The notes: a model not told the origin generated them from the sequence alone. Positions 5,021-18,633 are shown, counted from the first letter of the stretch. The stretch is 64,000 nt of DNA from Acholeplasmatales bacterium (GCA_017961685.1 JAGCWW010000084.1:8450-72449), one strand, 5' to 3'. A program made the numbers and translations.

Positions 5021-6511
5021 ATGTACAAACTTAGAGAAGTAAGTCGTGGTAATTATGATGACCGTGGTTATTCAAATGAAGAAACTATTGCTCATCTTAT
5101 GCTTACACATCCTGAGGAAATTAATAACACCCTTACCTATACTTTTGGTATGGATGATGATAGGTTTCCTTTAACTTTCCTTACTGAGGGTCAAGGTTCT
5201 GCTGGTGTTGTTGATATTTCTACAGAGCAGTGGACTTGGAAGATTATGGGACGTATGAAGTTTAATGATTACGTTATTTGGTTTAATACAAGTAATACAA
5301 CTCCTGGTAAGGGTGGTGCTATGTTTGATGTTGAGTTTGCTACTCATTGGTTGATTGAGCAGTATGGTTTGATTGCTCCTGATAGTAGGACTCAAGTTCG
5401 TATTATGAAAGACCTTGGAGAAGGTGCTCATGGTGGTTATCTTTATCGTTTGAAGATTACTAGTCCTAATCCTAATGTTTATGTAGATCCTTCTATGCTT
5501 GCTAAGGGTAAGTATTGGAGTATGACTGCACCTACAATTAGTGCTTCTTACAGTAAGGGAAATCGTTCTAATGTTATGGGTCCTGGTAAGATGACTTCTC
5601 AGCTTGAGTATCATCGTTATTCTAAGGAAATTGCTGGTAACATTAGTAATACTATTGTAACTTACGAGTTTAAGACCACTGATGGTGGTACAACAAATCT
5701 TTGGATTAATGAGGAGATGCGTCAGCATAATATTAATATTCGTATTATGGATGAAGAGCGTCTTTGGCTTGCTGAATATAATCGTACTGAAAACGGTGAA
5801 GTAACTCTTGTTGACCCTGATAATGGTCAACCAATTCCTCATACTTCTGGTATGATGGAGATTTGTCGTGAGGCAAATTATGATACTTATGGTGAATATC
5901 TTACATTGAATAAGATTGAACGTACTATTGGTGATGTTTTGGATAAGGATACTGATACTGGTACTATGGAAGTTGTTCTTATGGCTGGTAAGGGCTTTAT
6001 GCAAGATTTTGACCAAGCTATTCGTAATGATGCTAAGTCTGAAGGTTTTGTTACACCTCTTGGTGACAAGATGATTGAAGATTTTGATGGAGGTCTTTCT
6101 TATGGTAAGTATTTCCGTCGTTATAAGACAGTAGATAATCATATTATTACTTTGAAGCATCTTTCTTTCCTTGATAAGGGTACTCTTGCAGACAATGATA
6201 AGGCTAATGGTAACGTACATCCTCGTACAGGTCTTCCAATGTCTTCACATCAGGCTTTCCTTATTGATATGAGTAAGTATAGTAATAAGGATGAAGGTTC
6301 TGTTCGTAATGTTCGTAAGGTTCGTCTGAAGGGTCAGATTTATCTTAGTGGCGTACTTAAAGGTCTTACTCCTATTCCAGCTTCTTGGGGCGGTGTTCCT
6401 CAGAATAGTCTTGGAACAGAGATTGATATGAGTCGTTATGAGATTAAGAATACTTACGGCTTGCAAGTAAACAATAACACAAAGATGTTCCAATTACAGT
6501 GTAAACTCTAA
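5021..6511 (+). CDS. major capsid protein (HK97-fold type) candidate
   Basis: 496-aa ORF in the portal-scaffold-coat position. It has the strongest high-expression codon bias in the window, and its size fits crAss-like MCPs. No search was possible. Confidence 0.55.
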   Translation: MYKLREVSRGNYDDRGYSNEETIAHLMLTHPEEINNTLTYTFGMDDDRFPLTFLTEGQGSAGVVDISTEQWTWKIMGRMKFNDYVIWFNTSNTTPGKGGAMFDVEFATHWLIEQYGLIAPDSRTQVRIMKDLGEGAHGGYLYRLKITSPNPNVYVDPSMLAKGKYWSMTAPTISASYSKGNRSNVMGPGKMTSQLEYHRYSKEIAGNISNTIVTYEFKTTDGGTTNLWINEEMRQHNINIRIMDEERLWLAEYNRTENGEVTLVDPDNGQPIPHTSGMMEICREANYDTYGEYLTLNKIERTIGDVLDKDTDTGTMEVVLMAGKGFMQDFDQAIRNDAKSEGFVTPLGDKMIEDFDGGLSYGKYFRRYKTVDNHIITLKHLSFLDKGTLADNDKANGNVHPRTGLPMSSHQAFLIDMSKYSNKDEGSVRNVRKVRLKGQIYLSGVLKGLTPIPASWGGVPQNSLGTEIDMSRYEIKNTYGLQVNNNTKMFQLQCKL

Positions 6512-6534: not shown

Positions 6535-7653
6535 ATGAATATTACACCTAATACTCCTACACAAAAGGCTGGTGGAAATACAAGTTCACCTGAGGTAAAA
6601 GTTCCTGCTGGAACTACAAATAATACAACTATTTCTAATGATGAATTGAATAGTGAGTATATTGATAAGCGTAGTGTAACTATTAGTCTTGTACACAACT
6701 ATTCTAATTATCGTCGCGTTAATTTAAAAGTCTTAGGTCAGAGAAAAGAAACTATTGGTTCTTCTGTTAAGTCGTGTCAAATTCTTTCCTCTAACGCTGA
6801 AGAAGTAGCAGCTTATTTTCCAGCTCTTATAGGTTTATCACCTACTAATCCTGATTTTATTACTAGAGTTAAAGCTTGGCTTAGTAATATACAGTTTACT
6901 ATTAACGAGAATGATGTAAGTCTTGATACTACATTTATTTATAAGCATAAAGCTGATTATTTAAAGATTCAAGAAGAAGAAGATAGAATTAATAAAGAGT
7001 ATGATAAAGTTGATAGGGCAAATACTGCTGCTATTAAAGAAGCATTAAAGATTAAAATTGATGCTTTAAATACTCTTGAAAGTTCTAAATATAAATACGG
7101 TCATCCTGCTAAACTTGAAGATTATCTTATGTATCGTCATTGTCTTTTATACTCTGATGTTGCAAAAGATATTGCTCTAATTAATTCAGATCCTACTCTT
7201 AGGTTCTATATTAAGGATGAAGCTAGAGAAGCAGAAAAGCAGAAGAAGTTGACGGAACAAAAGACAAAGGCAATGAAGAACTTTGTTGAACTTAACGGTA
7301 CTGAAGCTAAGTTCAATGCAGTTTATGTTGCTATGTGTGTATTCCGTAATGATAATCTTTCTGAAGCTCTTCTTAAATCTCGTAACGAAAAGGTTGCTGC
7401 ACTTATTGATTTTGTTAATACAAATCCTGATAAGTTCAATCGTTTTGTTGAAGATAAGAATGTTCAGCTCAAAGCGTTTATTGAAACATTGATTGTTCGT
7501 GGTGAACTTGTACGTTCTGAGTTTAATCAGCAAATTTCTACAGCTGAAGGAACATTTATTGGTTCTAATATGAACGAAGCTATTGCTTGGTTTGAAAATG
7601 AAGAACATAAAGATGTTCGTGAAGCTTATGAAAATAAAATTAAACTTTTTTAA
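6535..7653 (+). CDS. head/connector-module structural protein, function unknown
   Basis: 372-aa ATG ORF, tightly packed after the MCP candidate. Confidence 0.6.
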   Translation: MNITPNTPTQKAGGNTSSPEVKVPAGTTNNTTISNDELNSEYIDKRSVTISLVHNYSNYRRVNLKVLGQRKETIGSSVKSCQILSSNAEEVAAYFPALIGLSPTNPDFITRVKAWLSNIQFTINENDVSLDTTFIYKHKADYLKIQEEEDRINKEYDKVDRANTAAIKEALKIKIDALNTLESSKYKYGHPAKLEDYLMYRHCLLYSDVAKDIALINSDPTLRFYIKDEAREAEKQKKLTEQKTKAMKNFVELNGTEAKFNAVYVAMCVFRNDNLSEALLKSRNEKVAALIDFVNTNPDKFNRFVEDKNVQLKAFIETLIVRGELVRSEFNQQISTAEGTFIGSNMNEAIAWFENEEHKDVREAYENKIKLF

Positions 7654-7665
7654 TATATTAGAGTT

Positions 7666-8697
7666 ATGACTATAGCTGAGATGCACGTATGGTTTCGACA
7701 GTATGCTCAACAAATGGGTATGCAAAATGTTCGAGCTATTCTTCCAGAACAAATTGACCTAGTCATTAATTCGAGCATTACAGATACAGTCAATCAGATA
7801 ATCACACAAAACATTGGTATAACTAACGATAGAATTATCACAGATAACTCTAAAATTGGTCAAATCAATGCTCTTAGAAGTCTTTACAAAGTTAAAATTG
7901 TAGATACTACTATCAATCCTGATCTTATAGGTCCTGAGCCTGGTAATCCTTTTTCACTTGGTGATGAAGCTTATATAGAACGCATATATGGTAAAATTGC
8001 TGACTTTAATAATAGTTCGTCTAGATATTATGCGATTGTTAGTGAAACAATTAGTGGAGAAGAAGTCTATAATGCTGTAAGAATACCTAAAGACACGTTT
8101 GATAGTTTAACTGATAAAGTAACTGTTACTAGTCTTGATGACATATCTTCTTATGAAACTGTAGATTATAATGGTTATGGTATTGAACTTGAAGCTACTG
8201 AAAATCAATTTGATTATCTTTATCTTGTAGATTTATCATTAAATTATAGAACTGTAAGTAATAAAGTAACAAATTATTTTCCAGTACGTCTTATAGATGA
8301 TATATATCTTGCTGATACACTTAATGATTTTGTTCTTAGACCTAGATTCAGAACTCCTATTGCAGTAGTATACAATAATCAACTTGATTTGTATATTGAT
8401 GTTTTAGAAGGCACTGATGGCAATAAGCATCTTCCTCAAGGACTTAATACCAATAATCTTCGTGTAAGTTATATTGGTAAACCTGCTAAGGTTCAATATT
8501 TAAGTGATATTGATGGTGTTGATGTAAATTGTGATTTACCTGATTATTTACATGTTGATATTCTTAAACATGCTGTAGACCTTTATCGTATTTCTGTTCA
8601 AGGAGGTATGTATAGTGCTCAACAGCAACAACAAGCTCAAAATCAGGAAATAGCTAGAAATAATGTTCGTCCTGATAATGAAGGTTATCAATCTTAA
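7666..8697 (+). CDS. head/connector-module structural protein, function unknown
   Basis: 343-aa ATG ORF with a Q-rich C-terminus (SAQQQQQAQNQE). Confidence 0.6.
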   Translation: MTIAEMHVWFRQYAQQMGMQNVRAILPEQIDLVINSSITDTVNQIITQNIGITNDRIITDNSKIGQINALRSLYKVKIVDTTINPDLIGPEPGNPFSLGDEAYIERIYGKIADFNNSSSRYYAIVSETISGEEVYNAVRIPKDTFDSLTDKVTVTSLDDISSYETVDYNGYGIELEATENQFDYLYLVDLSLNYRTVSNKVTNYFPVRLIDDIYLADTLNDFVLRPRFRTPIAVVYNNQLDLYIDVLEGTDGNKHLPQGLNTNNLRVSYIGKPAKVQYLSDIDGVDVNCDLPDYLHVDILKHAVDLYRISVQGGMYSAQQQQQAQNQEIARNNVRPDNEGYQS

Positions 8698-8718
8698 ATT
8701 TAAATAATTATTATTAAT

Positions 8719-9702
8719 ATGAAACAACTTTTAATTGTAGATAAGGCTAAAGCCCTTAATGCTAATACAGGTACCACTGTTACTCCATACAATTTGAGTG
8801 GTCTTGCTAAAGGTGCTATTTCTTTCTTTGAACTTGGTGCTTCAAGTCTGCTTTCTGCTGCACCTACGAAGAATTTCGCTATTGCTCTTGGTCGTGGTAG
8901 TAACAGTCCTGCTTTTGTAATTCCTGAAGTTGATATTGATACACTTCAGATTACTAAAGCTCTTCCCGTACCTGGCAAAGCATTTAGTCGTAAGTTTACT
9001 TTCCCCACTCCTGTAAAAGGTAAAGATTATAGTATTATGTTTATTAAGTGTGCTACTGTACCTCATGAACGTAATACTTGGACTTGTACTGTAACTGCTA
9101 GTGGAACTACTGCTTCTACTGAAGCTACTGCAATGAAAACCGCTATTGAAGCAAAGCTTGGCGATAAGTTTACTGTAAGTGTCGCTACTGCTGCTGTTAC
9201 TATTACAGCTAAAACTGTTGGTGAGCAGTGGGAAGCTAAGTTTGCTGATGAACTTACTGGTACTTCTTGGGCTGGTAGTACAGATTATGTGAATGCTGAA
9301 CCTACTATTGGTGATAAAGCTTATGTTCAGCATCTTGCTTCTATGTGTGCTGCTGGTAAGGGCTTTACAGACACATATCGTGATGGTGATACTATCTATC
9401 CTGGTTATCCTGAAGTTGTCGAAGATTTGACTCCAAATACTTCTGGTGATGCTGGCGCTAGTACATCTGGTTATGCAGTATTTACTCTTCGTTTCCAAGT
9501 AGGACGCGATGCTGCTAAAACTCGTGATGAAAAAGTATGGCAAGTAGTTCATATTGCAGTACCTGTTGATAGTGGTTCTGCTTATGCTGCAATTTCTTCA
9601 ATTCTTCCTGAAGGAAATTTTAAGGATGCTAAGACTGCTGCTATTGCTGCAGAAGTTGTAGAAGAAATGGTTAATAGTAGTGACCTTAATGAAAGTGCTT
9701 AA
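8719..9702 (+). CDS. abundant virion protein, possible auxiliary capsid protein
   Basis: 327-aa ORF rich in A/T/G residues, with the same high-expression codon bias as the MCP candidate. It is followed by a hairpin. Confidence 0.4.
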   Translation: MKQLLIVDKAKALNANTGTTVTPYNLSGLAKGAISFFELGASSLLSAAPTKNFAIALGRGSNSPAFVIPEVDIDTLQITKALPVPGKAFSRKFTFPTPVKGKDYSIMFIKCATVPHERNTWTCTVTASGTTASTEATAMKTAIEAKLGDKFTVSVATAAVTITAKTVGEQWEAKFADELTGTSWAGSTDYVNAEPTIGDKAYVQHLASMCAAGKGFTDTYRDGDTIYPGYPEVVEDLTPNTSGDAGASTSGYAVFTLRFQVGRDAAKTRDEKVWQVVHIAVPVDSGSAYAAISSILPEGNFKDAKTAAIAAEVVEEMVNSSDLNESA

Positions 9703-9712
9703 TATGATTATA

Positions 9713-9747
9713 AATCCCAACATCTCCTTTACGGGGGTGCTGGGATT
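9713..9747 (+). promoter_or_regulatory. 7-bp hairpin presenting the YnTACGn motif in its loop
   Basis: aatccca (9713-9719) pairs with tgggatt (9741-9747). The loop is acatctcctttacgggggtgc. It lies between the stop at 9702 and the ATG at 9760. Confidence 0.6.
9723..9737 (+). repeat. YnTACGn motif copy (intergenic)
   Basis: tctccttTACGGGGG, followed 7 nt later by ATTAAACTTAAT (9745-9756). Confidence 0.9.
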
Positions 9748-9759
9748 AAACTTAATACT

Positions 9760-10383
9760 ATGAATGATTTACAGACAATCAATGAGATTGTCAATGAAAG
9801 TGTTAGAAATTCTTCCTATGTAACTGTAATTATTTCTAGTTGTATTTTTATTATTTATACTATTATTGTAAGACTTATTGATTATTTTAAAGCTAAAAAT
9901 AAAAATAAAAGTCTTTATGAAATGGCAATAGCAATTAAAGAAAATACAGCTAATGTAATTAAACTTAATAGCATTTTAGATAAAACATTAAAAGATGCTG
10001 AGAAGAAAGAACTTCGTCAATGTGAAAGAGCTATTGATTTAAGTTTTAAGGCTTTTGGATATAGACTTGCTCAAGAGTGTTCTGCTGTTATAGCTTATAA
10101 TAACATTGATGATAATAAAGAATTAATAGTTGGCAATATAAATAAATTAGTTAGTGCCGAATATTATAAATTATATTCTACTCTTTCAACTTACGAAATA
10201 AATGAAATAAATGTTTCAAACAAACTTAAAGAAGAATGGATAAAAGAAGTAGCTGATAGTCTTATAGCTATTGTCTATGATGGACAAGACGCTATTAATA
10301 GAATAACTCAAATTAACAATAGACTTAACATCTATATTAATGAGTATTCTACTTTTATTAACAATAAAGTTTTTAACACATAA
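9760..10383 (+). CDS. hypothetical protein with N-terminal transmembrane helix
   Basis: 207-aa ORF with a hydrophobic segment VTVIISSCIFIIYTIIVRLI. Confidence 0.6.
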   Translation: MNDLQTINEIVNESVRNSSYVTVIISSCIFIIYTIIVRLIDYFKAKNKNKSLYEMAIAIKENTANVIKLNSILDKTLKDAEKKELRQCERAIDLSFKAFGYRLAQECSAVIAYNNIDDNKELIVGNINKLVSAEYYKLYSTLSTYEINEINVSNKLKEEWIKEVADSLIAIVYDGQDAINRITQINNRLNIYINEYSTFINNKVFNT

Positions 10384-10625: not shown

Positions 10626-11380
10626 GTACAAATCTTCAACAAATAGAACCTGAATATATATATGTAACTATACCTGCTGAGTATATATGTGTATATCATC
10701 GTATTCTTGCAATGCTTGCAGATTATGGTGAAGATATGCTTAAAGATTGTAAAGCATCGTGTAAAGATAGGAATGTAAATGTTATTGAATGTTTTAATAT
10801 GTTTAATGCAGCTGTTGCTGCAAGAAAATTAAGTAAAGATAAACTTGCTGAAACTCTTATTAAATATATTAAAGCTAAAATAAATCAAATTTATAAAGGA
10901 CATGATAATTCTACATCTTTTGTATTTCCTATTGATGAAAATGGACAAATTAAAGCTTTTGTATCATGTGGAGAAAGACCTCGTTTTGAAATAAATCCTG
11001 ATGATGGTGCTTTATATGAACATAAGTTTAATAATGGATTTGATGAGCATTTTAAACTTGGTCCAGAAGATGAATCTACCGATGGAGAAGATGTAACACC
11101 CCCCGTAGAAGAAATTGGTTTAGTAATAGATTTTACTCCTGAATATCATCTTGTTGATGGCGAATATAAGCCTTGTGGTGATTTAGTTGTTAGATATAAT
11201 GGAGAATATATTGATCCTAATACTTGTATTATTCAATATTATTTTGATGACATTGTAGTATTAAGATTTAATGATGTTACTGGTTTAACAACAGGAACTC
11301 ATAACTTTAAAGTTGTTGTTACTTATAATAATGAAACTAAAATAGTAAATAAAGATTTATATTATGCAGCTATCAGTTGA
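10622..11380 (+). CDS. hypothetical tail-fibre-module protein
   Basis: 252-aa ORF translationally coupled to its neighbours. Confidence 0.6.
   Translation: MSTNLQQIEPEYIYVTIPAEYICVYHRILAMLADYGEDMLKDCKASCKDRNVNVIECFNMFNAAVAARKLSKDKLAETLIKYIKAKINQIYKGHDNSTSFVFPIDENGQIKAFVSCGERPRFEINPDDGALYEHKFNNGFDEHFKLGPEDESTDGEDVTPPVEEIGLVIDFTPEYHLVDGEYKPCGDLVVRYNGEYIDPNTCIIQYYFDDIVVLRFNDVTGLTTGTHNFKVVVTYNNETKIVNKDLYYAAIS
11099..11113 (-). repeat. YnTACGn motif copy
   Basis: CCCCCCGTAgaagaa, inside ORF 10622..11380 where it is read as T-P-P-V-E-E. Confidence 0.9.
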
Positions 11381-12341
11381 TAAATTAGGTAAAGTTGCTA
11401 TAACTGTAGAAGAAAATTATTGGTCTTTAGAAAAAGACTATGATAAACTTACTATAGTTGAGCAAGAAGGAGTTTTTGGTACTTTTATTAGTAGAAAGCC
11501 AGTTCCTGCTGGTACAGTTCTTACTAATAGAAAATATTGGATTCCTTTTAGTAGTTTAAAAGAAGAAATTGTATTACAATTTAATGAAATTGTAAATGAA
11601 GTCAGAGAGTTAGAAGTTAGTGTAGATGAAAAAGAAGCTGAAATATATAAAGCTATAGCTTCTATTGTTGCTGGTGGTGTAGCTCTTAAACAAAGTTTTG
11701 GAAATTCTGAAGAGTTTGGTATTAGTCAGAAAGTTCTTACAGAAAGTAGAGATGCTTTGCAGGCTCAGATAGATGCTATAATTAGTGATAAGGCTACCGT
11801 TAGTCTTGCTGTTTCTACTAGTACATTTATTGTTGGTGAAAGGACTTTTATTCTTACGGCAAGCACTAATACTAATGCTGAAACTATAGCCATTTATCAA
11901 AGTAATGTTGGTATTGCTATTGGTAGTGGAAAAACTTTGGTAAAAGAAGTTACAGTTAATCAAGCTACTGCTGGAAGTATTGGTTATACAGCTGAGTTTA
12001 CTTTTGCTGGAAATAATAAAAGAACTGCTAATGTTACGGTTTATTTTGTGAACAAAATTTATGTAGGAAGTGGAGCTGTTTATACAGATATTACTACAGA
12101 CTCTTATGCTGTTAGTGCTCGTAGGAGTCCTGCTGGTACATATAATGTTACTGTTGAACAGAATGGTCAATATATATTCTTTGTTATTCCTGCTACAATG
12201 AGTATTACCAAAGCCACTTTAAGTGGATTTGATTTCCCCTTAGAATCTCCTGTAACTGAAACTATAGACAATGTTTCGTATAAAGTTTACAAAAGTAGTA
12301 ATACTATTGATGCAGGTACTTATCAAATTGTAATTTCTTAA
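11364..12341 (+). CDS. tail fibre / Ig-like-repeat protein candidate
   Basis: 325-aa ORF. The beta-rich T/S/V/A sequence is typical of fibre or Ig-like domains, and it sits directly upstream of the large fibre gene. Confidence 0.45.
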   Translation: MQLSVDKLGKVAITVEENYWSLEKDYDKLTIVEQEGVFGTFISRKPVPAGTVLTNRKYWIPFSSLKEEIVLQFNEIVNEVRELEVSVDEKEAEIYKAIASIVAGGVALKQSFGNSEEFGISQKVLTESRDALQAQIDAIISDKATVSLAVSTSTFIVGERTFILTASTNTNAETIAIYQSNVGIAIGSGKTLVKEVTVNQATAGSIGYTAEFTFAGNNKRTANVTVYFVNKIYVGSGAVYTDITTDSYAVSARRSPAGTYNVTVEQNGQYIFFVIPATMSITKATLSGFDFPLESPVTETIDNVSYKVYKSSNTIDAGTYQIVIS

Positions 12342-12353
12342 ATACAAATAAAT

Positions 12354-15320
12354 ATGGCTGAAAATAAAAATATTGAAGTAGGAGGTCGTCTTCATAGTAT
12401 TGCTAGTGGCAATGTTCTTGCAGGTGCCGATGAAATATTTGATGATGCCAAGAATAAGAAACAAAGTGTAATAAACGCTGAAGTTGATAGTATACTTTCA
12501 ACTCATTCTAGTGTTATTGCTGGTCTTAATACTCAAAATTATGTTACTGTTACTGCAACAGAAGAAACAATGGATGTAACTGATGTTCTTCCTTCTGAAG
12601 ACCAAGCTACTGACACTGTTTACAGAGTTGGTTGTTGGAATGGTACAGAGTTTGATGAAAGTTCCTATAGTGAATATGCTTGGAACGGTTCTGCTTATGT
12701 TCATGTTAGTACAAAGACTCAAATAAGTGAAGTCTTTGATATTTCTGCGTATCACGCTAGTGGTGGTGAACTTGCTACTTATGATGATTTGACTGATGCT
12801 CTTGATGGTGGTAATAATATTCCACAATCTCTAAGAAAAGGTGGAATGGAGATTCGTTTCGTACAGACTTCTGACAATAAGTATGTGCAGTTCCGCTATA
12901 TGAGTTCTTCAACCGATGTCGCTGATTTTACAAATGTTGATAATTGGCAGAAGCAAGGCGCAGAAGTGACCATATCTCCAAATAGCCAATTAGGTGGATA
13001 TGACATAAATATCGGAGGTGATTCTACCAATGTTGCACCACAAACTATGATGAACATGTCTGATGGTGCTCTTTACAATGAATTTCCGATAGAGACTGGA
13101 GCCATTAGTAATACAACAGGTAAAGATTACGATTTAGCAAGAAGATGCAGGACGAAGAATTATTTACACACACCTTTTAACATTACTACAAAAGATGGTT
13201 ATATAATAAAGTCTGCTTATAGATATAGCAAATATGATTTGTCTTTTGTTGATTATATAGCAATAGAATCATCTATAGCAAGTATCACTAATAATAATTA
13301 TATATATCGAATTACTTTTGCGAAGTCCGACAACACAGATTTTGATGGAGAAACTTATGACGACATAATTAACGGTTTTAATGGTATAATCGGAATAATT
13401 ACACAAAATATAAGTACTAATGAAAGACAGATTGAATCTAACAATAAAGATACTTTCGGAGTTAAATTGTCGGGAACAGGCAATAATGACACTATAGTTG
13501 ATTTGGCTGTCAATTATCAAGTAGTCATTGGAAAAACATACGCGGTAAAGATAAAAGCATTAGATGATAGCGGAGTGACAGATGGGAAAAACATCTTCTT
13601 TATCCAAAACGCTGACTATTCTCAAACACTCGCATCAATAGTTAAAGGTAGCGGTGTAACATATCTTACATTTATGCCTGATGTGAATGTTATAAATATC
13701 CGATGCCGCGCTACAGTATCAACTGATGTTGGGGTTATTTTCGGAGGTTTGGATATTGAGGTTAAAAATAATACTCAAAGAATCCAAAACTTAGAAAGTA
13801 ATGTAAATTCCGTTAAGACATCTGTCAATGGTCTTTCCAACACAGTAGATGGATTGTTGGTAGATGGTACAGGTGCAGGAGACAGTCCTGTGACATTGTT
13901 GCAAGCATCTACAATAGCTGGAAAGAAATACTTCATAAAGATAAAAACTCTTGATGATAGTGGTGTTGGTAATGGCAAAAATAAATTGTTTGTTCAAAAT
14001 AGTGACTACCAACAAACAATATTGGGTGTTCCCAAAGGAGATACAGATACATTATTCTCTTTTGTTGCTATTGATAGTACGTCTTATATTAGATGCCGTG
14101 CTACAAATGGCACAAAAGTTGAGATACTGTATGACGGTCTTAAATACCATGTAAATGACAATACCGAAGAAATTGAATCGTTAAACCTTCATGTGAGTGG
14201 TAAAGAGGTAAAAGGCACTGGTGTTGGTGATAGTCCTGTAACATTGTATTCAGCAGACACTGTGGCTGGACATCAATATCTCTTGAAGATAATATCACTT
14301 AACGGAACTGGTATCACAGATGGTAAAAATGTGCTATATGTACAAGATAAAACGCATCAGACAACTCTTGCAGCCGTTCAAAAAGGAGTATCTGCTCAGT
14401 TTGTTGCGTTTACAGCAATAAACGAAATATCACATATTAAATGCCGTGCTACAAATGGGACAACTGTAAAATTAATATATGGTGGACTTGAGATAAGTAT
14501 TGATGAGAGGTTTGATAATATCAGCAAACAAATATCTATTGATAATTTAGATAAATTGCCGTCATTATCTGATATAATCCAGCCATCATTTGCCTTGAGT
14601 TTTGCAAGAATAATTACAGATTGGGGATTTGTTGGTGCAAGTTATGATAGTGGTGTCTTTGAGGATTACTCCACAAATCCAGTATCTTATGTTACAGATT
14701 ATTCAAAGTCTGTATGGCAGATATTCTGTAGTATTAACAATGTTCAAGGCTATAATTTCAGTGTAGGTGGACAAACAGCAAAGGGTTGGTGTACAAATCA
14801 AAATGAAAGGGCTTGGTATGGTGCGCAAAGTAGCCCCAAAAAAGGTTATACTATACAATTAGGTGGTAATGACTTGACAAATTATGACAAAGGAGATATT
14901 GGTTCATATCCTGTAGGAGACCCATCAACAGATATTGATTTTGCGGATTGGAATAACAACGCTGATACCTATTGTGGGTGGATAGCGGGAGTAATCCAAC
15001 GTATAAAGAGTATTGCACCATTGGCACCAATATTTATGCTCTCTATTAATAATAGACTATCTGGTAGTCATGATGTAGTCGGGTGGAATGCGGCACTACA
15101 GACTGTTATAAGTATGTGTAATACTCAGTTTGGTCAAGTTTACTATGTTGACCAGTTTGGTTATCCCGATTGGAGAAATGCCGAAGTTGCAAGACGTTAC
15201 TTGGTTGGTGGTCATCCAAATTTTGCTGGATATGTCTATCTTGCAGGTATGTTCAACAAACTTATAGATAACACCATTCGAGATAATATTTATGAATTTA
15301 GACTGATTCAATTTAATTAG
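12354..15320 (+). CDS. tail fibre/spike with three tandem domains and a C-terminal SGNH/GDSL-like esterase domain
   Basis: 988 aa. Three roughly 115-aa tandem repeats share KIK.LDDSG..DGKN..VQ...Q.T......G.......IRCRATNGT. The C-terminal blocks FVGASYDSG, LGGNDL (14862-14873 region) and GGHPNFAGY (His codon 15213-15215) match SGNH blocks I, III and V, recalled from memory. Confidence 0.6.
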   Translation: MAENKNIEVGGRLHSIASGNVLAGADEIFDDAKNKKQSVINAEVDSILSTHSSVIAGLNTQNYVTVTATEETMDVTDVLPSEDQATDTVYRVGCWNGTEFDESSYSEYAWNGSAYVHVSTKTQISEVFDISAYHASGGELATYDDLTDALDGGNNIPQSLRKGGMEIRFVQTSDNKYVQFRYMSSSTDVADFTNVDNWQKQGAEVTISPNSQLGGYDINIGGDSTNVAPQTMMNMSDGALYNEFPIETGAISNTTGKDYDLARRCRTKNYLHTPFNITTKDGYIIKSAYRYSKYDLSFVDYIAIESSIASITNNNYIYRITFAKSDNTDFDGETYDDIINGFNGIIGIITQNISTNERQIESNNKDTFGVKLSGTGNNDTIVDLAVNYQVVIGKTYAVKIKALDDSGVTDGKNIFFIQNADYSQTLASIVKGSGVTYLTFMPDVNVINIRCRATVSTDVGVIFGGLDIEVKNNTQRIQNLESNVNSVKTSVNGLSNTVDGLLVDGTGAGDSPVTLLQASTIAGKKYFIKIKTLDDSGVGNGKNKLFVQNSDYQQTILGVPKGDTDTLFSFVAIDSTSYIRCRATNGTKVEILYDGLKYHVNDNTEEIESLNLHVSGKEVKGTGVGDSPVTLYSADTVAGHQYLLKIISLNGTGITDGKNVLYVQDKTHQTTLAAVQKGVSAQFVAFTAINEISHIKCRATNGTTVKLIYGGLEISIDERFDNISKQISIDNLDKLPSLSDIIQPSFALSFARIITDWGFVGASYDSGVFEDYSTNPVSYVTDYSKSVWQIFCSINNVQGYNFSVGGQTAKGWCTNQNERAWYGAQSSPKKGYTIQLGGNDLTNYDKGDIGSYPVGDPSTDIDFADWNNNADTYCGWIAGVIQRIKSIAPLAPIFMLSINNRLSGSHDVVGWNAALQTVISMCNTQFGQVYYVDQFGYPDWRNAEVARRYLVGGHPNFAGYVYLAGMFNKLIDNTIRDNIYEFRLIQFN
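13473..14515 (+). repeat. three tandem ~350-bp domain repeats inside the fibre gene
   Basis: Repeat units begin near 13473 (GTGNNDTIV), 13863 (DGTGAGDSPV) and 14211 (KGTGVGDSPV). They are diverged at the DNA level. Confidence 0.8.
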
Positions 15321-15323
15321 TAA

Positions 15324-15381
15324 AGAGTTATTGTAATAACTCTGTACGAAAAGTGGGTATGATTTAATATTGTACCCACTT
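15324..15381 (+). terminator. two stem-loops after the fibre gene (putative terminator)
   Basis: agagttatt..aataactct (15324-15343) and aagtgggta..tacccactt (15351-15381). There is no clear T tract. Confidence 0.4.
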
Positions 15382-15628
15382 ATAAACAAAATTATATGAC
15401 TGAGTCTGTCGGTATTACTGCGCGTAATAAAGATAATACTTTTTATTAAATACTTTAGAATATGACATACAAAGAAGAAACTTATGTTCTTGATACTCTT
15501 AAAGAGATACAAGAATTTATTAGAAGTCCAGCATATAACAATATATAAAAAGTTCATGAGAATAATGGTATGTTAAAACAACTTTTGGCACTTGAGTTGT
15601 AAATACTAATTAATTAAAATTTAAAATT

Positions 15629-16033
15629 ATGGAAACAAAAGAAAATAAATCTATTACGTCTTGTTTTGTAACTAATTACATTTTACGAAAAACTGGAGAA
15701 CAAGTTGAAGTTATTGCTCATTATTCAGAAGAAAATGGCGCTAGAAGTGTAAACGATTGGGTTAGCTATATTGACTCAAAGGGTGTAGAACATATTAAAG
15801 AAAATCTTAATATCAGTTTTGACTTTATTGTTAAACCTGATATGCCAGAGTTTATAAAAAAGATATTTAACACACCTTCTGTTCCAGCTATGCCTGATAC
15901 AAATAATTATAGAATATTTGACCTGGCTAAAGAACTATATTTTAAACGTTACCTTCTCGCAAGAGAAGCAATAACTACTGCCAAAGAATTTGTTGAAACT
16001 TTTAATAGTATTATTGATGAAAAGTCAAAGTAA
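15629..16033 (+). CDS. hypothetical protein
   Basis: 134-aa ATG ORF, the first gene of the small-gene island. Confidence 0.6.
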   Translation: METKENKSITSCFVTNYILRKTGEQVEVIAHYSEENGARSVNDWVSYIDSKGVEHIKENLNISFDFIVKPDMPEFIKKIFNTPSVPAMPDTNNYRIFDLAKELYFKRYLLAREAITTAKEFVETFNSIIDEKSK

Positions 16034-16175
16034 ACTTATTGGTAATATAGCTCGTAGGGTAAATATTCCCTATTCTAAAGCAGTTGTTCTTCTTAGACAA
16101 TTAAGTAATAATAAAGACATTCAAACTAAATTGAGAGAGCAAAATGAAAAACAAATAGAACCGATTATATTCTAG
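16017..16175 (+). CDS. small hypothetical protein (52 aa)
   Basis: ATG at 16017; the track start at 15990 is a TTG. It overlaps the previous stop and ends at a TAG inside a 9-nt tandem duplication. Confidence 0.4.
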   Translation: MKSQSKLIGNIARRVNIPYSKAVVLLRQLSNNKDIQTKLREQNEKQIEPIIF

Positions 16176-16219
16176 ATATTCTAGAACGAATTAGAGATGA
16201 AACTCATCAAAATAATATT

Positions 16220-16357
16220 ATGTTGAAACAAATAATTAAAGCTATAAATACATATATTTCTAGACATCATCAAGAAAACGAAGATGATTTTATGAGAAAT
16301 GTTTTAGCTAATTTAATAAGTAGTGGATTTGATATTAAAAGAATTATTAAAAAATAA
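16220..16357 (+). CDS. small hypothetical protein (45 aa)
   Basis: ATG ORF MLKQIIKAINTYISRHHQENEDDF...KRIIKK. The stop abuts the next ATG, and the frame is open upstream to 16150 without an ATG. Confidence 0.3.
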   Translation: MLKQIIKAINTYISRHHQENEDDFMRNVLANLISSGFDIKRIIKK

Positions 16358-16678
16358 ATGGAAATTATTAATAATATTATAGAAACTACAATAAATAGTT
16401 TTGATTTTGTTTATTGTTTAATTGTCAATATTCTTACATATACTGTAATTAAAGTTATTGATGAACTTAATGGTAATAAGCCTATTAGTGTTTGGACTAA
16501 ACGTATAGTGTTATTAATCTGCATCCTCTTTACGGGGGGTCTATATTATACTATAGGCAAAGATTCAGAACTTCTTATAAATAGTGCTATTCTTACTCCT
16601 GTTAGTTGGTCTTGGATATTTAAACCTTTATGTATTAAATTTAATATTGACTATAAACAATTAAAAGAATTAGATTAA
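16358..16678 (+). CDS. small membrane protein (holin-like topology)
   Basis: 106 aa with 2-3 hydrophobic helices (FVYCLIVNILTYTVIKVI, IVLLICILFTGGLYYTI). Confidence 0.5.
   Translation: MEIINNIIETTINSFDFVYCLIVNILTYTVIKVIDELNGNKPISVWTKRIVLLICILFTGGLYYTIGKDSELLINSAILTPVSWSWIFKPLCIKFNIDYKQLKELD
16524..16539 (+). repeat. YnTACGn motif copy
   Basis: tcctcttTACGGGGGG, inside ORF 16358..16678 where it is read as L-F-T-G-G. Confidence 0.9.
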
Positions 16679-16721
16679 CAATTTTTAATATAAATAATTT
16701 TATATTATAGTGAAAATTGTT

Positions 16722-16729
16722 TAATTTTG
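16722..16729 (+). promoter_or_regulatory. possible -7 box TAATTTTG
   Basis: Matches TAnnTTTG 31 nt upstream of the ATG at 16760. No good TTTG -33 element is present. Confidence 0.3.
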
Positions 16730-16759
16730 CAAAGTATTAATTTTTAAATTATTAAGTTT

Positions 16760-16894
16760 ATGGCTAAATCAAGTAGTAAAAGTTCATCTAAAAGTAGTAG
16801 TTCTACTAAAAGTGCAAATAAACCTAAACCTATGACACCAAGAGCAGGTTTTACAGCTAATAGACGTCGTTATGGAGAAGGTGGAAAAGCATAA
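16760..16894 (+). CDS. small Ser/Lys-rich basic protein (44 aa)
   Basis: ATG ORF MAKSSSKSSSKSSSSTKSANKPKPMTPRAGFTANRRRYGEGGKA. It is below the track cutoff and is preceded by a -7-like box. Confidence 0.35.
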   Translation: MAKSSSKSSSKSSSSTKSANKPKPMTPRAGFTANRRRYGEGGKA

Positions 16895-17255
16895 ATATTT
16901 ATACAAGTTGGAATTAGTGTTACTAAAGATAATACCTATGCTTCTAGCATTGTGTTACTTTAGTAACACTATTCTTTCTATTTATGGGTATGATATACCA
17001 ATATTTTCAATATTTGCTGGTATGTCTATTTTTCCTATGATATTTTTATATATTTCTTCTTATGTTTTTAGATTTTGTGAATATCATAGAATGTTTTTAC
17101 ATTATGTAGTATTTAATGATGTGTTTGCTTGGATTGATTTTTATTACGATTTTCCATTTGAAAATAGAGATTATATAGCAATTCATCTTTCTATAGCTTG
17201 TATTTTCTTATTTATTATATTATACTTAAAGGTAAAAGTATGCAAAAAGTTTTAA
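16872..17255 (+). CDS. multi-pass membrane protein
   Basis: 127 aa with 3-4 hydrophobic helices. The true start may be an internal Met (MLLALCYF). Confidence 0.5.
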   Translation: MEKVEKHKYLYKLELVLLKIIPMLLALCYFSNTILSIYGYDIPIFSIFAGMSIFPMIFLYISSYVFRFCEYHRMFLHYVVFNDVFAWIDFYYDFPFENRDYIAIHLSIACIFLFIILYLKVKVCKKF

Positions 17256-17664: not shown

Positions 17665-18633
17665 ATGGATAAAGACAATGTTCTTGTTTTTCCTGATGCA
17701 CTATCAAGAGGTGCTGTTGGTGGTATTGACCCTGCTCTTATGCTCGCTATTAATAACAATGGTGGTTTCGGTAACAATGGGTATTGGGTTTGGATACTCC
17801 TTATGTGGATGATGTATGGTAATAATGGTTGGGGTAATGGTTTTGGTGGAAACAATGGTACAGGTTTCCTTGCAAATCAACTCAACAACGATGCTGGTCG
17901 TGACCTTCTGCTTCAGGCTATTAATGGTCGTGCTGATGCTGCTGCTCAGATTGCACAGATTACTAATAATAGTGTAGAAAGTGTTAAAAATGCTTTGTTT
18001 ACTATTCAGTCTGCTATTCAGAGTGTTGGTGCTCAGGTTGGTATGAGTGGTCTTGAAACTATCAACGCTCTTCAGCTTGGTAATGCTACTCTTTCTCGTC
18101 AGATTTGTGAGTGTTGTTGCGAAAATCGTCTTGCTATTTGTCAGCAGACTAATGCTCTTCAGAGTACTATGGCAGCTAATCATGCTGAAGATATTCTTCG
18201 TTCCTCTCAAGCTCATGCTGAAGACCGTCTTGATGTTTGTCAGCAAACTAATGACCTTAAAACTCAAAGTATTGTAAATACTCAAGGTATTAAGGATATG
18301 ATTAATCAGCAGACTATCATGATTAATGATAAGTTCTGTGAGTTAGAAAAGAGGGAAATGCAGAATAAGATTGCTACTCAAGGTGATATTATAACTCAGC
18401 TTCGCAATCAGATTAGTAATGACCATCAGACACTTCAATTTAATAGTGCTTTCCATGCTCTTGATGACAAAATTGACGCTATTGCTGCAAAACAGCCTAA
18501 TACTGTTCCTGTACAGTGGCCTAATCTTGTAGCTGCAAATGCTACTCCTTATGTAGGTCAAAGCTATTATCCTGGCTTTTATGGTAATTATGGTGGCTGG
18601 GGTTCTGGTGTTAATGGTGGTGTAATACTTTAA
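17665..18633 (+). CDS. Gly/Asn/Trp-rich, Cys-containing coiled-coil protein of unknown function
   Basis: 322 aa. Termini are GNNGWGNGFGGNNGTGF and YYPGFYGNYGGWGSGVNGG. The core carries a repeated RL.(I/V)CQQTN.L motif and CECCCE. Codon bias suggests high expression. Confidence 0.65.
   Translation: MDKDNVLVFPDALSRGAVGGIDPALMLAINNNGGFGNNGYWVWILLMWMMYGNNGWGNGFGGNNGTGFLANQLNNDAGRDLLLQAINGRADAAAQIAQITNNSVESVKNALFTIQSAIQSVGAQVGMSGLETINALQLGNATLSRQICECCCENRLAICQQTNALQSTMAANHAEDILRSSQAHAEDRLDVCQQTNDLKTQSIVNTQGIKDMINQQTIMINDKFCELEKREMQNKIATQGDIITQLRNQISNDHQTLQFNSAFHALDDKIDAIAAKQPNTVPVQWPNLVAANATPYVGQSYYPGFYGNYGGWGSGVNGGVIL

Follow-up and report, generated by a model that had tools for sequence, protein, structure and literature searches.

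A fibre gene of a crAss-like phage, located at positions 12354..15320 (+) of a 64,000-nucleotide (nt) stretch of DNA (GCA_017961685.1 JAGCWW010000084.1:8450-72449, referred to at its full length as the window), is a mosaic of a resident N-terminal part and a foreign distal part. Near the boundary between the two lies a 24-nt core that is almost invariant at the nucleotide level, and an inverted partner of this core stands just past the stop codon. The core and its partner are the most informative feature of the gene and were missed by the initial annotation of the window, which had described a mosaic tail fibre. We consider it probable that the 988-amino acid (aa) protein is a virion fibre composed of a resident anchor and an exchangeable cassette, bracketed by inverted repeats and tipped with an SGNH esterase. 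Codons 1-169 would be the resident phage part that fixes the fibre to the virion, and the cassette would extend from the core at 12861 through the inverted copy at 15324-15347, encoding the last third of an adaptor domain (B) and, after a spacer, three beta-rich domains followed by the C-terminal SGNH esterase. Drawn from a pool of distal modules common to phages of widely differing G+C content, the cassette would keep the pool's G+C content at third codon positions (GC3) of ~0.25 inside a genome of GC3 0.12. The core and its partner are most likely the DNA sites of cassette exchange or inversion and, holding one cassette, this phage would be fixed in the SGNH state. At adsorption the tip would most likely strip O-acyl (acetyl) groups from a host surface glycan, as other SGNH-tipped fibres do.

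The proximal part of the protein comprises two sub-domains. Sub-domain A (aa 1-125; 12354..12728, +), the putative resident anchor, has native codon usage and is followed by sub-domain B (aa 127-198, VFDIS..GGMEIRFVQTSDNKYVQ..NWQ; 12732..12947, +), which ends at the invariant W198. It is at this residue (nt 12947), and not at about codon 160, that the conserved N-terminal module stops. More than 120 database proteins (570-1570 aa) share just aa 1 to ~210 with the fibre, at 50-65% identity, and their C-termini are of GDSL, metallophosphatase, M14 peptidase, CotH, GDPD, GH43, pectate-lyase, polysaccharide-deacetylase and other types. Domain B alone (aa ~127-199) occurs in many phage fibre open reading frames (ORFs), placed from about residue 20 to about residue 810. 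In the closest relative genome, L006, synteny is kept, the flanking proteins are 73-86% identical and the first 122 nt of the fibre gene are 88% identical, and the distal fibre part is unrelated; the distal part is likewise unrelated in L004, where synteny is also kept and flanking proteins are 45-88% identical. The gene's place in the structural module and the combination of a conserved anchor at the N-terminus with a hypervariable distal part correspond to a layout of the tail-fibre type. The L006 fibre (6993-9869 of IMGVR_UViG_3300021431_000101) contains two near-identical internal copies of ~120 aa (SIPSIAKREYYPFITLGKGLYKMTV...), a differing insert at aa 62-176 and a beta-helix-like C-terminus, and its distal GC3 is 0.11.

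The two parts of the gene also differ in composition, and this shift is restricted to third codon positions and synonymous sites. The first ~160 codons had been described as native, in agreement with a GC3 of 0.128 for codons 1-164 against a background of 0.118 (18,055 codons); after codon 164, GC3 is 0.252. A maximum-likelihood change point in GC3 at 12846 (codon 164, +; 2-log-likelihood interval codons 72-173, nt 12570-12873) lies within a few codons of the boundary proposed earlier, at ~12840. The accompanying proposal that the DNA becomes G+C-rich from there on does not hold, since bulk G+C is flat inside the gene (0.362 at 12354-12845 and 0.355 at 12846-15320), the N-terminal part being richer in G+C at codon positions 1 and 2. 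The initial annotation had named a flat G+C or codon profile as grounds for abandoning its reading: the codon and GC3 profile is shifted, and because the shift lies only at third positions the flat G+C profile would have led to that reading being given up wrongly. At four-fold sites the G/C fraction is 0.192 (64/334) in the distal part, the background value being 0.063 (413/6518; Fisher p = 2e-14); it is even over spacer, repeats and esterase domain (0.18, 0.195 and 0.194, respectively), and no sizeable gene equals the distal part in this respect. Several rare codons are raised, namely GCG (7/46 against 2%), GTG (8/62 against 2%), ATC (11/74 against 4%) and TTG (17/47 against 5%). The string quoted as an example of ccg, gcg and cgc codons, ccgatgccgcgctaca, though present at 13700, reads CGA TGC CGC GCT ACA in frame, and the whole ORF contains 2 CCG, 8 GCG and 2 CGC. 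Spurious off-frame ORFs, which had been attributed to the shift, are not in excess: those of at least 60 aa number 1.7 per kb in the fibre gene, 2.0 in the capsid gene and 1.14 window-wide, and the longest in the gene body (109 aa, 12498-12827) lies upstream of the shift.

A GC3 step could also reflect translational selection, amino-acid content or chance instead of foreign origin. The capsid gene (5021-6511) and a gene encoding 322 aa (17665-18633) likewise have a GC3 of ~0.24, and the permutation p within the fibre gene is merely ~0.01. In these two genes, however, the gain comes solely from AAG, GAG, CAG and TTC, with zero G/C-ending four-fold codons, whereas in the distal part of the fibre gene G/C-ending codons are up in all codon families, which marks the shift as compositional and not expression-linked. 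Selection, amino-acid content or chance is also contradicted by the four-fold test and by the relatives: in most of 29 of them GC3 steps occur at or near the homologous position, usually downward and with log-likelihood ratios up to 98. This explanation is largely refuted and we regard it as very improbable. In the capsid gene and at 17665-18633, AAG, GAG and CAG are strongly favoured and third-position A is down to 0.13, a codon bias that looks like expression-linked selection.

Change points in the 29 relatives mostly fall between -35 and +2 codons from the end of domain B. As the GC3 discontinuity is family-wide, the upward step in the window represents its low-G+C version. Proximal GC3 follows that of the flanking genes (slope 0.76) and distal GC3 does not (slope 0.18), and the distal modules act like a common pool that has a composition of its own. 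These 29 loci, from IMG/VR (L009-L088) and all with domain B, have a distal GC3 of 0.26 +/- 0.05 against a flanking-gene GC3 of 0.14-0.75.

The search of the distal segment for a donor, suggested by the initial annotation, revealed none that is close. An exhaustive search with aa 217-988 among 1.84 billion representatives identified 681 relatives, the best of them 47% identical, and nearly all match just aa ~716-987; in these proteins, of 250-1640 aa, the match is C-terminal. The closest relatives of the repeats are ~30% identical. A word-indexed homology search with the same residues returned only the protein itself. Scanning 185,579 species genomes with a narrower SGNH alignment yielded eight loci, none closer than 42%. 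The closest relatives from species genomes, 30-42% identical, include a 918-aa fibre-like ORF in a Flavobacterium metagenome-assembled genome (MAG), Clostridia proteins of ~262 aa and Bacteroidales proteins of ~300 aa whose N-termini resemble signal peptides. The ~190 related loci likewise contain nothing closer than 42%. The foreign nature of the distal part is supported; the description of a 'recently swapped' module is not: with the closest C-terminal relative 47% identical, no recent donor is visible and a recent swap cannot be shown, and a distal GC3 of ~0.25, being the family-wide value, provides no clock for the exchange.

Conservation of the junction extends to the nucleotides themselves. 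Comparison of the gene with the fetched loci by blastn gave 94-97% nt identity over 12858-12891 to many otherwise dissimilar phages. Overlapping this segment, the left inverted-repeat arm (IR-L; 12857..12884, +) contains the 24-nt core GTACAGACTTCTGACAATAAGTAT at 12861-12884, corresponding to codons 170-177, and the consensus of the core across the family is GTACAGAGTTCTGACAATAAGTAT. A codon alignment of 73 unique loci with a locus G+C of 0.28-0.55 was built through a protein profile, and hence is unbiased on codon choice; in it these eight codons are near-fixed (GTA 48/50, CAG 57/60, AGT 55/57, TCT 62/63, GAC 69/72, AAT 64/71, AAG 62/63 and TAT 65/72). Equally conserved neighbours are free at the third position (D129 T39/C30; G164 A28/T27/C18; F169 T36/C29), and synonymous variation resumes directly after the core, at V178 (G34/A21) and Q179 (A36/G35). 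When the loci are anchored on codon 170, upstream GC3 is 0.5-0.67, 0.3-0.5 or 0.15-0.27 depending on the genome, converges from about eight codons before the core and levels at ~0.25 downstream in all groups. Other functions of the core were considered and rejected: an internal translation start after it, since codon 178 is GTA in one third of loci; a frameshift site, since there is no slippery heptamer; and a promoter, since promoter-like matches are at the level of shuffled sequence.

The right inverted-repeat arm (IR-R; 15324..15351, -) starts 3 nt past the stop codon and holds an inverted copy of the core (GTACAGAGTTATTACAATAACTCT on the minus strand) with the dyad AGAGTTATT-GT-AATAACTCT. 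This copy (15324-15347) has 4 mismatches to the family core, and nothing comparable appeared in 200 shuffles; with 24-nt arms that are 88% complementary, the pair ranks first among the inverted repeats of the region. The two arms have GTA..AGTT.T.ACAATAA.TATGT in common and show a 12-2-12 dyad symmetry around AC. Partners with no more than 5 mismatches accompany 27 of 105 unique cores that are followed by a complete ORF, and partners with no more than 6 accompany 49, against a best of 7 in shuffled controls; in 16 of the 27 loci the partner is at most 50 nt from the stop codon. Immediately outside IR-R lies a terminator-like hairpin (15351..15381, +; AAGTGGGTA..TACCCACTT), and relatives have equivalent GC-rich hairpins after IR-R. 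An antisense ORF of 153 aa (15096-15557, -) crosses the hairpin and IR-R and reaches into the 3'-terminal part of the fibre gene. A hypothetical inversion would place the final 84 codons of this ORF in frame with codon 169, which may be chance. Further downstream, small genes at 15629-17255 show a slightly raised four-fold GC3 (0.11-0.18; small counts) and are 42-64% identical to L006, against 73-86% for upstream genes; the variable block may extend past IR-R.

Several relatives hold more than one cassette. In L198, a 92-kb contig, inverted repeats of 35 nt that are 97% complementary lie 4.7 kb apart, with two units between and beside them. The first, a gene of full length, ends in an M14-type C-terminus; the second, convergent with it and 5'-truncated, has a GDPD-type C-terminus and starts exactly at the core after AT-rich non-coding DNA. 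L055 contains a truncated cassette in direct orientation, and L131 has three or four core copies, two of which are preceded by just 16 and 29 open codons. In truncated cassettes of the relatives, similarity starts at the first core base and no coding sequence lies upstream. Inverted repeats with one member in coding sequence at the junction of constant and variable parts, the arrangement typical of shufflons, are found here and recur in the family, and an alternative cassette between the repeats is present in L198, L131 and L055 but was not found in the ~80 kb covered of this genome. In two further places (L163 3645-4367 and L131 523-849), two core copies stand in tandem and in the same frame, domain B being duplicated in one protein.

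From this layout we infer recombination at the repeats. Exchange between genomes, plus inversion where two cassettes are held, is the mode that we favour, at about even odds. It is plausible, if slightly more doubtful than that, that the core and its partner are the sites of an undescribed fibre-tip cassette system, widespread in uncultured phages including crAss-like ones and operating by natural recombinase-mediated exchange. Enzymatic modules of 1.5-3 kb would then be inverted within genomes that hold a second, truncated cassette and would also be traded between phages of 28-55% G+C, giving rise to a common receptor-modifying pool with its own base composition, and the recombinase would come from a distant gene or from the host.

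A number of observations weigh against such a system. No recombinase was found by precomputed Pfam matches in ~80 kb of the ~90-kb genome of this phage, nor among the ORFs tested beside multi-cassette loci, and ~80 of the 90 kb contained neither a second cassette nor a second core copy. The arrangement is the same in all 17 contigs of this phage, and IMG/VR does not contain the junction predicted for the inverted state of L198. With a single cassette, moreover, inversion would only truncate the fibre by fusing codon 169 to the 84-codon antisense frame. A Mu-like switch inside this genome was rejected on account of the single core copy and the lack of a second cassette in those ~80 kb. One short contig of the same phage (L217, ERZ28653854 scaffold_11216) stops within the fibre gene, after 342 nt and 56 codons ahead of the core; the assembly may have broken near a variable site, or this is a coincidence.

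The uniform arrangement and the missing recombinase would fit if the core and its partner were short homology anchors, kept identical by repeated homologous, single-strand-annealing or homing-endonuclease-stimulated recombination between co-infecting phages, or formed a long-range messenger RNA stem serving stability or translation. The transcript contains both repeats, with the terminator-like hairpin downstream of them, and GIY-YIG and HNH endonucleases as well as a Sipho_Gp157-family protein are encoded in the genome. An inverted 3' copy of a 5' anchor is, however, not accounted for by homologous recombination, and neither is the limitation of invariance to exactly eight codons while adjacent homologous codons drift. 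The 5'-truncated cassettes that start at the core, together with the L198 repeats around two convergent cassettes, form the classic layout of an invertible segment, and the dyad symmetry of both repeats likewise speaks against simple anchors. We therefore rate anchors or an RNA stem as rather unlikely. The free-standing GIY-YIG and HNH/NUMOD4 endonuclease genes were seen in L215, from the same phage genome, at 1594-2346 and 11203-11811, the second overlapping the far end of the window; L215 also carries Sipho_Gp157 and DUF932 genes, and the products of these genes could stimulate recombination between co-infecting phages.

The distal end of the protein is assigned to the SGNH/GDSL hydrolases (aa ~750-988; 14601..15317, +). 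The three SGNH-like blocks noted earlier are all present, at aa 761-767 (GASYDSG), 837-841 (GGNDL) and 952-960 (GGHPNFAGY). S763 (14640-42), in GASYDSG, is invariant in alignments of 21 and 71 relatives, as are G806 (14769-71, in VGGQT), N839-D840 (14868-73, in GGND), D933 (15150-52) and H954 (15213-15). The AlphaFold2 model of the domain (predicted local distance difference test (pLDDT) 84.9, predicted template modelling score 0.83) has a three-layer alpha/beta/alpha fold. Foldseek retrieved 120 matches in the PDB with E <= 1e-3; the 50 listed consist almost entirely of GDSL/SGNH-type esterases, lipases and acyltransferases, and GDSL, CE3, CE2, TesA and sialate O-acetylesterase structures were matched with probability 1.0. 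An SGNH-domain profile finds stand-alone proteins of ~265 aa annotated as SGNH/GDSL hydrolases with E down to 1e-85, and these pass the Pfam thresholds (PF13472/PF00657), as do several fibre-type relatives (35.6-57.6 bits). The predicted SGNH fold, which the initial annotation had anticipated, is thus well supported.

Some features argue against catalysis. The fibre protein alone matches Lipase_GDSL_2 with E = 4.8e-5 and 24.4 bits, below the Pfam cut-off of 32.9; block I reads GAS and not GDS; and in block V the residue three positions before the histidine is V, the Asp of the DxxH motif being missing throughout the subfamily. The missing acid has alternatives, either a Ser-His dyad as in CE2 or another acid, such as the invariant D840 or D933. 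Enzymes of the CE2 family work with a Ser-His dyad. The domain could instead be a non-catalytic glycan-binding module, or act on another ester, such as O-acetylated peptidoglycan, acyl groups of lipopolysaccharide, or lipids. Its fold neighbours include lipases and thioesterases (EstL5, TesA), CE2, CE3 and sialate esterases and the peptidoglycan O-acetyltransferase PatB, and its cellular homologues include secreted Bacteroidales proteins and Clostridia proteins without an apparent N-terminal signal sequence. Set against this are the invariance of Ser, Gly, Asn and His across 71 aligned relatives, the variation of the residue preceding the nucleophile (D, A or G in the subfamily) while Ser stays, the presence of CE2 among the best fold matches, and the finding that fibre-borne SGNH domains assayed to date deacetylate surface polysaccharide (PMC9569702). 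A non-catalytic domain, or one acting on a different ester, appears unlikely on this evidence. Esterase activity and substrate are nevertheless predictions by analogy, and the 'Bacteroides capsule O-acetyl esterase' of the initial annotation is a reasonable parallel to the SGNH deacetylases already known from fibres (PMC9569702).

Between domain B and the SGNH domain, the body of the protein starts with a spacer (aa 199-369; 12948..13460, +) without family assignment, in which residues 246-342 (13089-13379) are similar to a unit that recurs in other fibre proteins with an SGNH tip. The triplicated domain announced earlier (13473-14515, units of ~115 aa) was recovered as three repeats of ~120 aa each at 13461-14564. 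Repeat 1 (aa 370-496; 13461..13841, +) is a beta-rich domain followed by a short heptad-like linker; repeat 2 (aa 502-618; 13857..14207, +) and repeat 3 (aa 617-737; 14202..14564, +) follow it. In pairs they are 34-46% identical in amino acids (E 1e-22 to 3e-34) and 44-57% identical in DNA, and Tandem Repeats Finder detected nothing in the DNA of the region, which together fit an old triplication. No family in Pfam, NCBIfam or the PDB matched the repeat domain.

The ORF is real and belongs to the structural genes of a crAss-like phage. The major capsid gene, of the crAss type, lies at 5021-6511 (PHROG 11589, E = 7e-126; Pfam Crass_capsid), and a gene for the crAss ring protein CrAss_Ring_2 is also near the fibre gene. 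The genome shows matches to PF23898 and PF25702. The window has a G+C of ~30% and contains giant ORFs of 2300 and 4464 aa. Contigs of the same phage measure 90.4-90.5 kb, so that capsid and ring proteins and a genome of the size typical of Crassvirales (~90-100 kb) are all in evidence. A protein identical to the fibre, recorded as 'hypothetical protein', is on record in a MAG labelled Acholeplasmatales, and the 16 contigs with this protein, mostly of ~90 kb, are plainly phage genome. The genome of this crAss-like phage is filed within the MAG 'Acholeplasmatales bacterium' (J6Y28_09700), and the label is probably a binning artefact that should not be taken as the host. Among 50,697 deposited phages, neither the whole fibre protein (tblastn) nor the 122-nt junction had any match; the fibre family is known from metagenomes only. 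The single DNA match among deposited phages (336 nt, 76% identity) is to Rudgehvirus jaberico (Crassvirales, Intestiviridae) and falls in the gene two positions upstream of the fibre gene. The fibre gene is syntenic with the presumed tail-spike block of Rudgehvirus. A PHROG 'DNA polymerase' match of the fibre protein (E = 0.0016) was judged spurious.

The protein is most probably a tail fibre or receptor-binding protein, a position suggested by synteny and by a weak match between domain B and the N-terminus of crAss001 gp24 (VPMSLRKQGLWITYV..NW), a member of the tail-fibre gene cluster of that phage (PMC10172136). Support for a tail location is weakened by the low score of this match (15.5 bits) and by the N-terminal domain, for which neither sequence-profile nor fold comparison with the PDB gave a significant match. 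Structural support from the body is weak as well: the monomer model of aa 200-745 is unreliable (pLDDT 30-45), confidence in the model of aa 1-745 being limited to aa ~30-200 (N-domain pLDDT 80-97), and a fold search in BFVD with the latter model gave weak fibre-like matches only. A trimeric fibre geometry is presumed.

A head (capsid) fibre deserves mention here, since crAss001 also bears head fibres that attach through short segments at their N-termini (PMC10172136), the capsid-protein block lies upstream of the gene and the N-terminal domain is without a match among solved tail-fibre structures. On the other side, the upstream neighbour and the fibre gene align with the N-termini of large Rudgehvirus proteins encoded beside the capsid block, the neighbour's N-terminus matching that of a 1499-aa protein with E = 7e-14. 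Two tail-spike genes, common to phages of the same host, have been reported in Rudgehvirus (PMC10569736) and may correspond to the aligned ORFs. The gp24 match and the hypervariable enzymatic tips typical of receptor-binding tail proteins also favour the tail, and a head fibre seems decidedly unlikely.

crAss-like phages are very abundant gut viruses, and little is understood of how their host range changes. Among receptor-binding proteins, a modular fibre tipped with an esterase is nothing out of the ordinary. What is unusual is a DNA site inside a gene that is conserved synonymously across a range of G+C contents, is mirrored past the stop codon and forms the start of truncated cassettes in relatives; as far as the searched literature shows, such a nucleotide-invariant cassette junction, bracketed by inverted repeats and common to uncultured phages, is undescribed. 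If the interpretation as a cassette system is true, it offers a concrete and testable mechanism for fibre-tip exchange, makes cassette boundaries predictable straight from sequence, explains the near-constant composition of distal fibre modules whatever the genome, and provides a natural docking site for host-range engineering in these phages.

Comparison with known systems places the gene among several of them. The CE2, CE3 and bacterial GDSL esterases (PDB 2wab, 2wao, 4xvh, 2vpt, 8ik1 and 7e16) share the alpha/beta/alpha fold of the tip, with target-normalised template modelling scores of 0.45-0.76, and have the Ser, Gly, Asn and His blocks in common with it; unlike them, the tip is fused to a fibre, scores below the Pfam gathering threshold and is only 13-17% identical. 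SGNH deacetylase fibres are known from Escherichia phage G7C (gp63.1) and Pectobacterium phage Possum (gp66), and the SGNH domain is common in receptor-binding proteins and horizontally acquirable (PMC9569702). These fibres also carry an SGNH hydrolase domain on a modular fibre with a conserved attachment part. The present phage differs in being crAss-like and not N4-like, in the GAS of block I and the lack of the DxxH Asp, and in the extreme C-terminal position of the domain, which is central in Possum gp66; gp63.1 is not among the 50 fold matches listed by Foldseek. With crAss001 (gp22-gp26; PMC10172136) the phage shares a crAss-like nature and several large modular fibres with enzymatic domains, whereas the genome order is different, the similarity to gp24 is confined to the weak match already mentioned and the fibre bodies are without structure.

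In BV01-like Phocaeicola phages, a tail-fibre shufflon of 1.7 kb with a 10-bp motif (TGGGAGAACT) and an adjacent recombinase has been proposed as a counter to variable capsules (PMC13596623), and cassette variation of fibre tips is treated in further literature (PMC9881135). There too, the distal end of a fibre is varied by cassette recombination in a phage of gut Bacteroidales. The present system is distinguished by whole enzymatic modules of 1.5-3 kb, a 24-nt core and a recombinase that was not found in the loci and the part of the genome searched.

The closest parallels in architecture are the G segment of phage Mu (Gin) and the C segment of P1 (Cin). Unlike in these phages, no invertase gene was found beside the multi-cassette loci, no orientation polymorphism was observed, and the window and at least 16 relatives have the right repeat directly past the stop codon, with no second cassette. 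The sequence of the core is presumably unrelated to the gix and hix sites of Mu and P1. The likeness lies in the one inverted repeat inside the fibre gene at the junction of constant and variable parts, in the 12-2-12 dyad symmetry of the site and, in the relatives L198 and L131, in 5'-truncated alternative distal cassettes in opposite orientation between the repeats.

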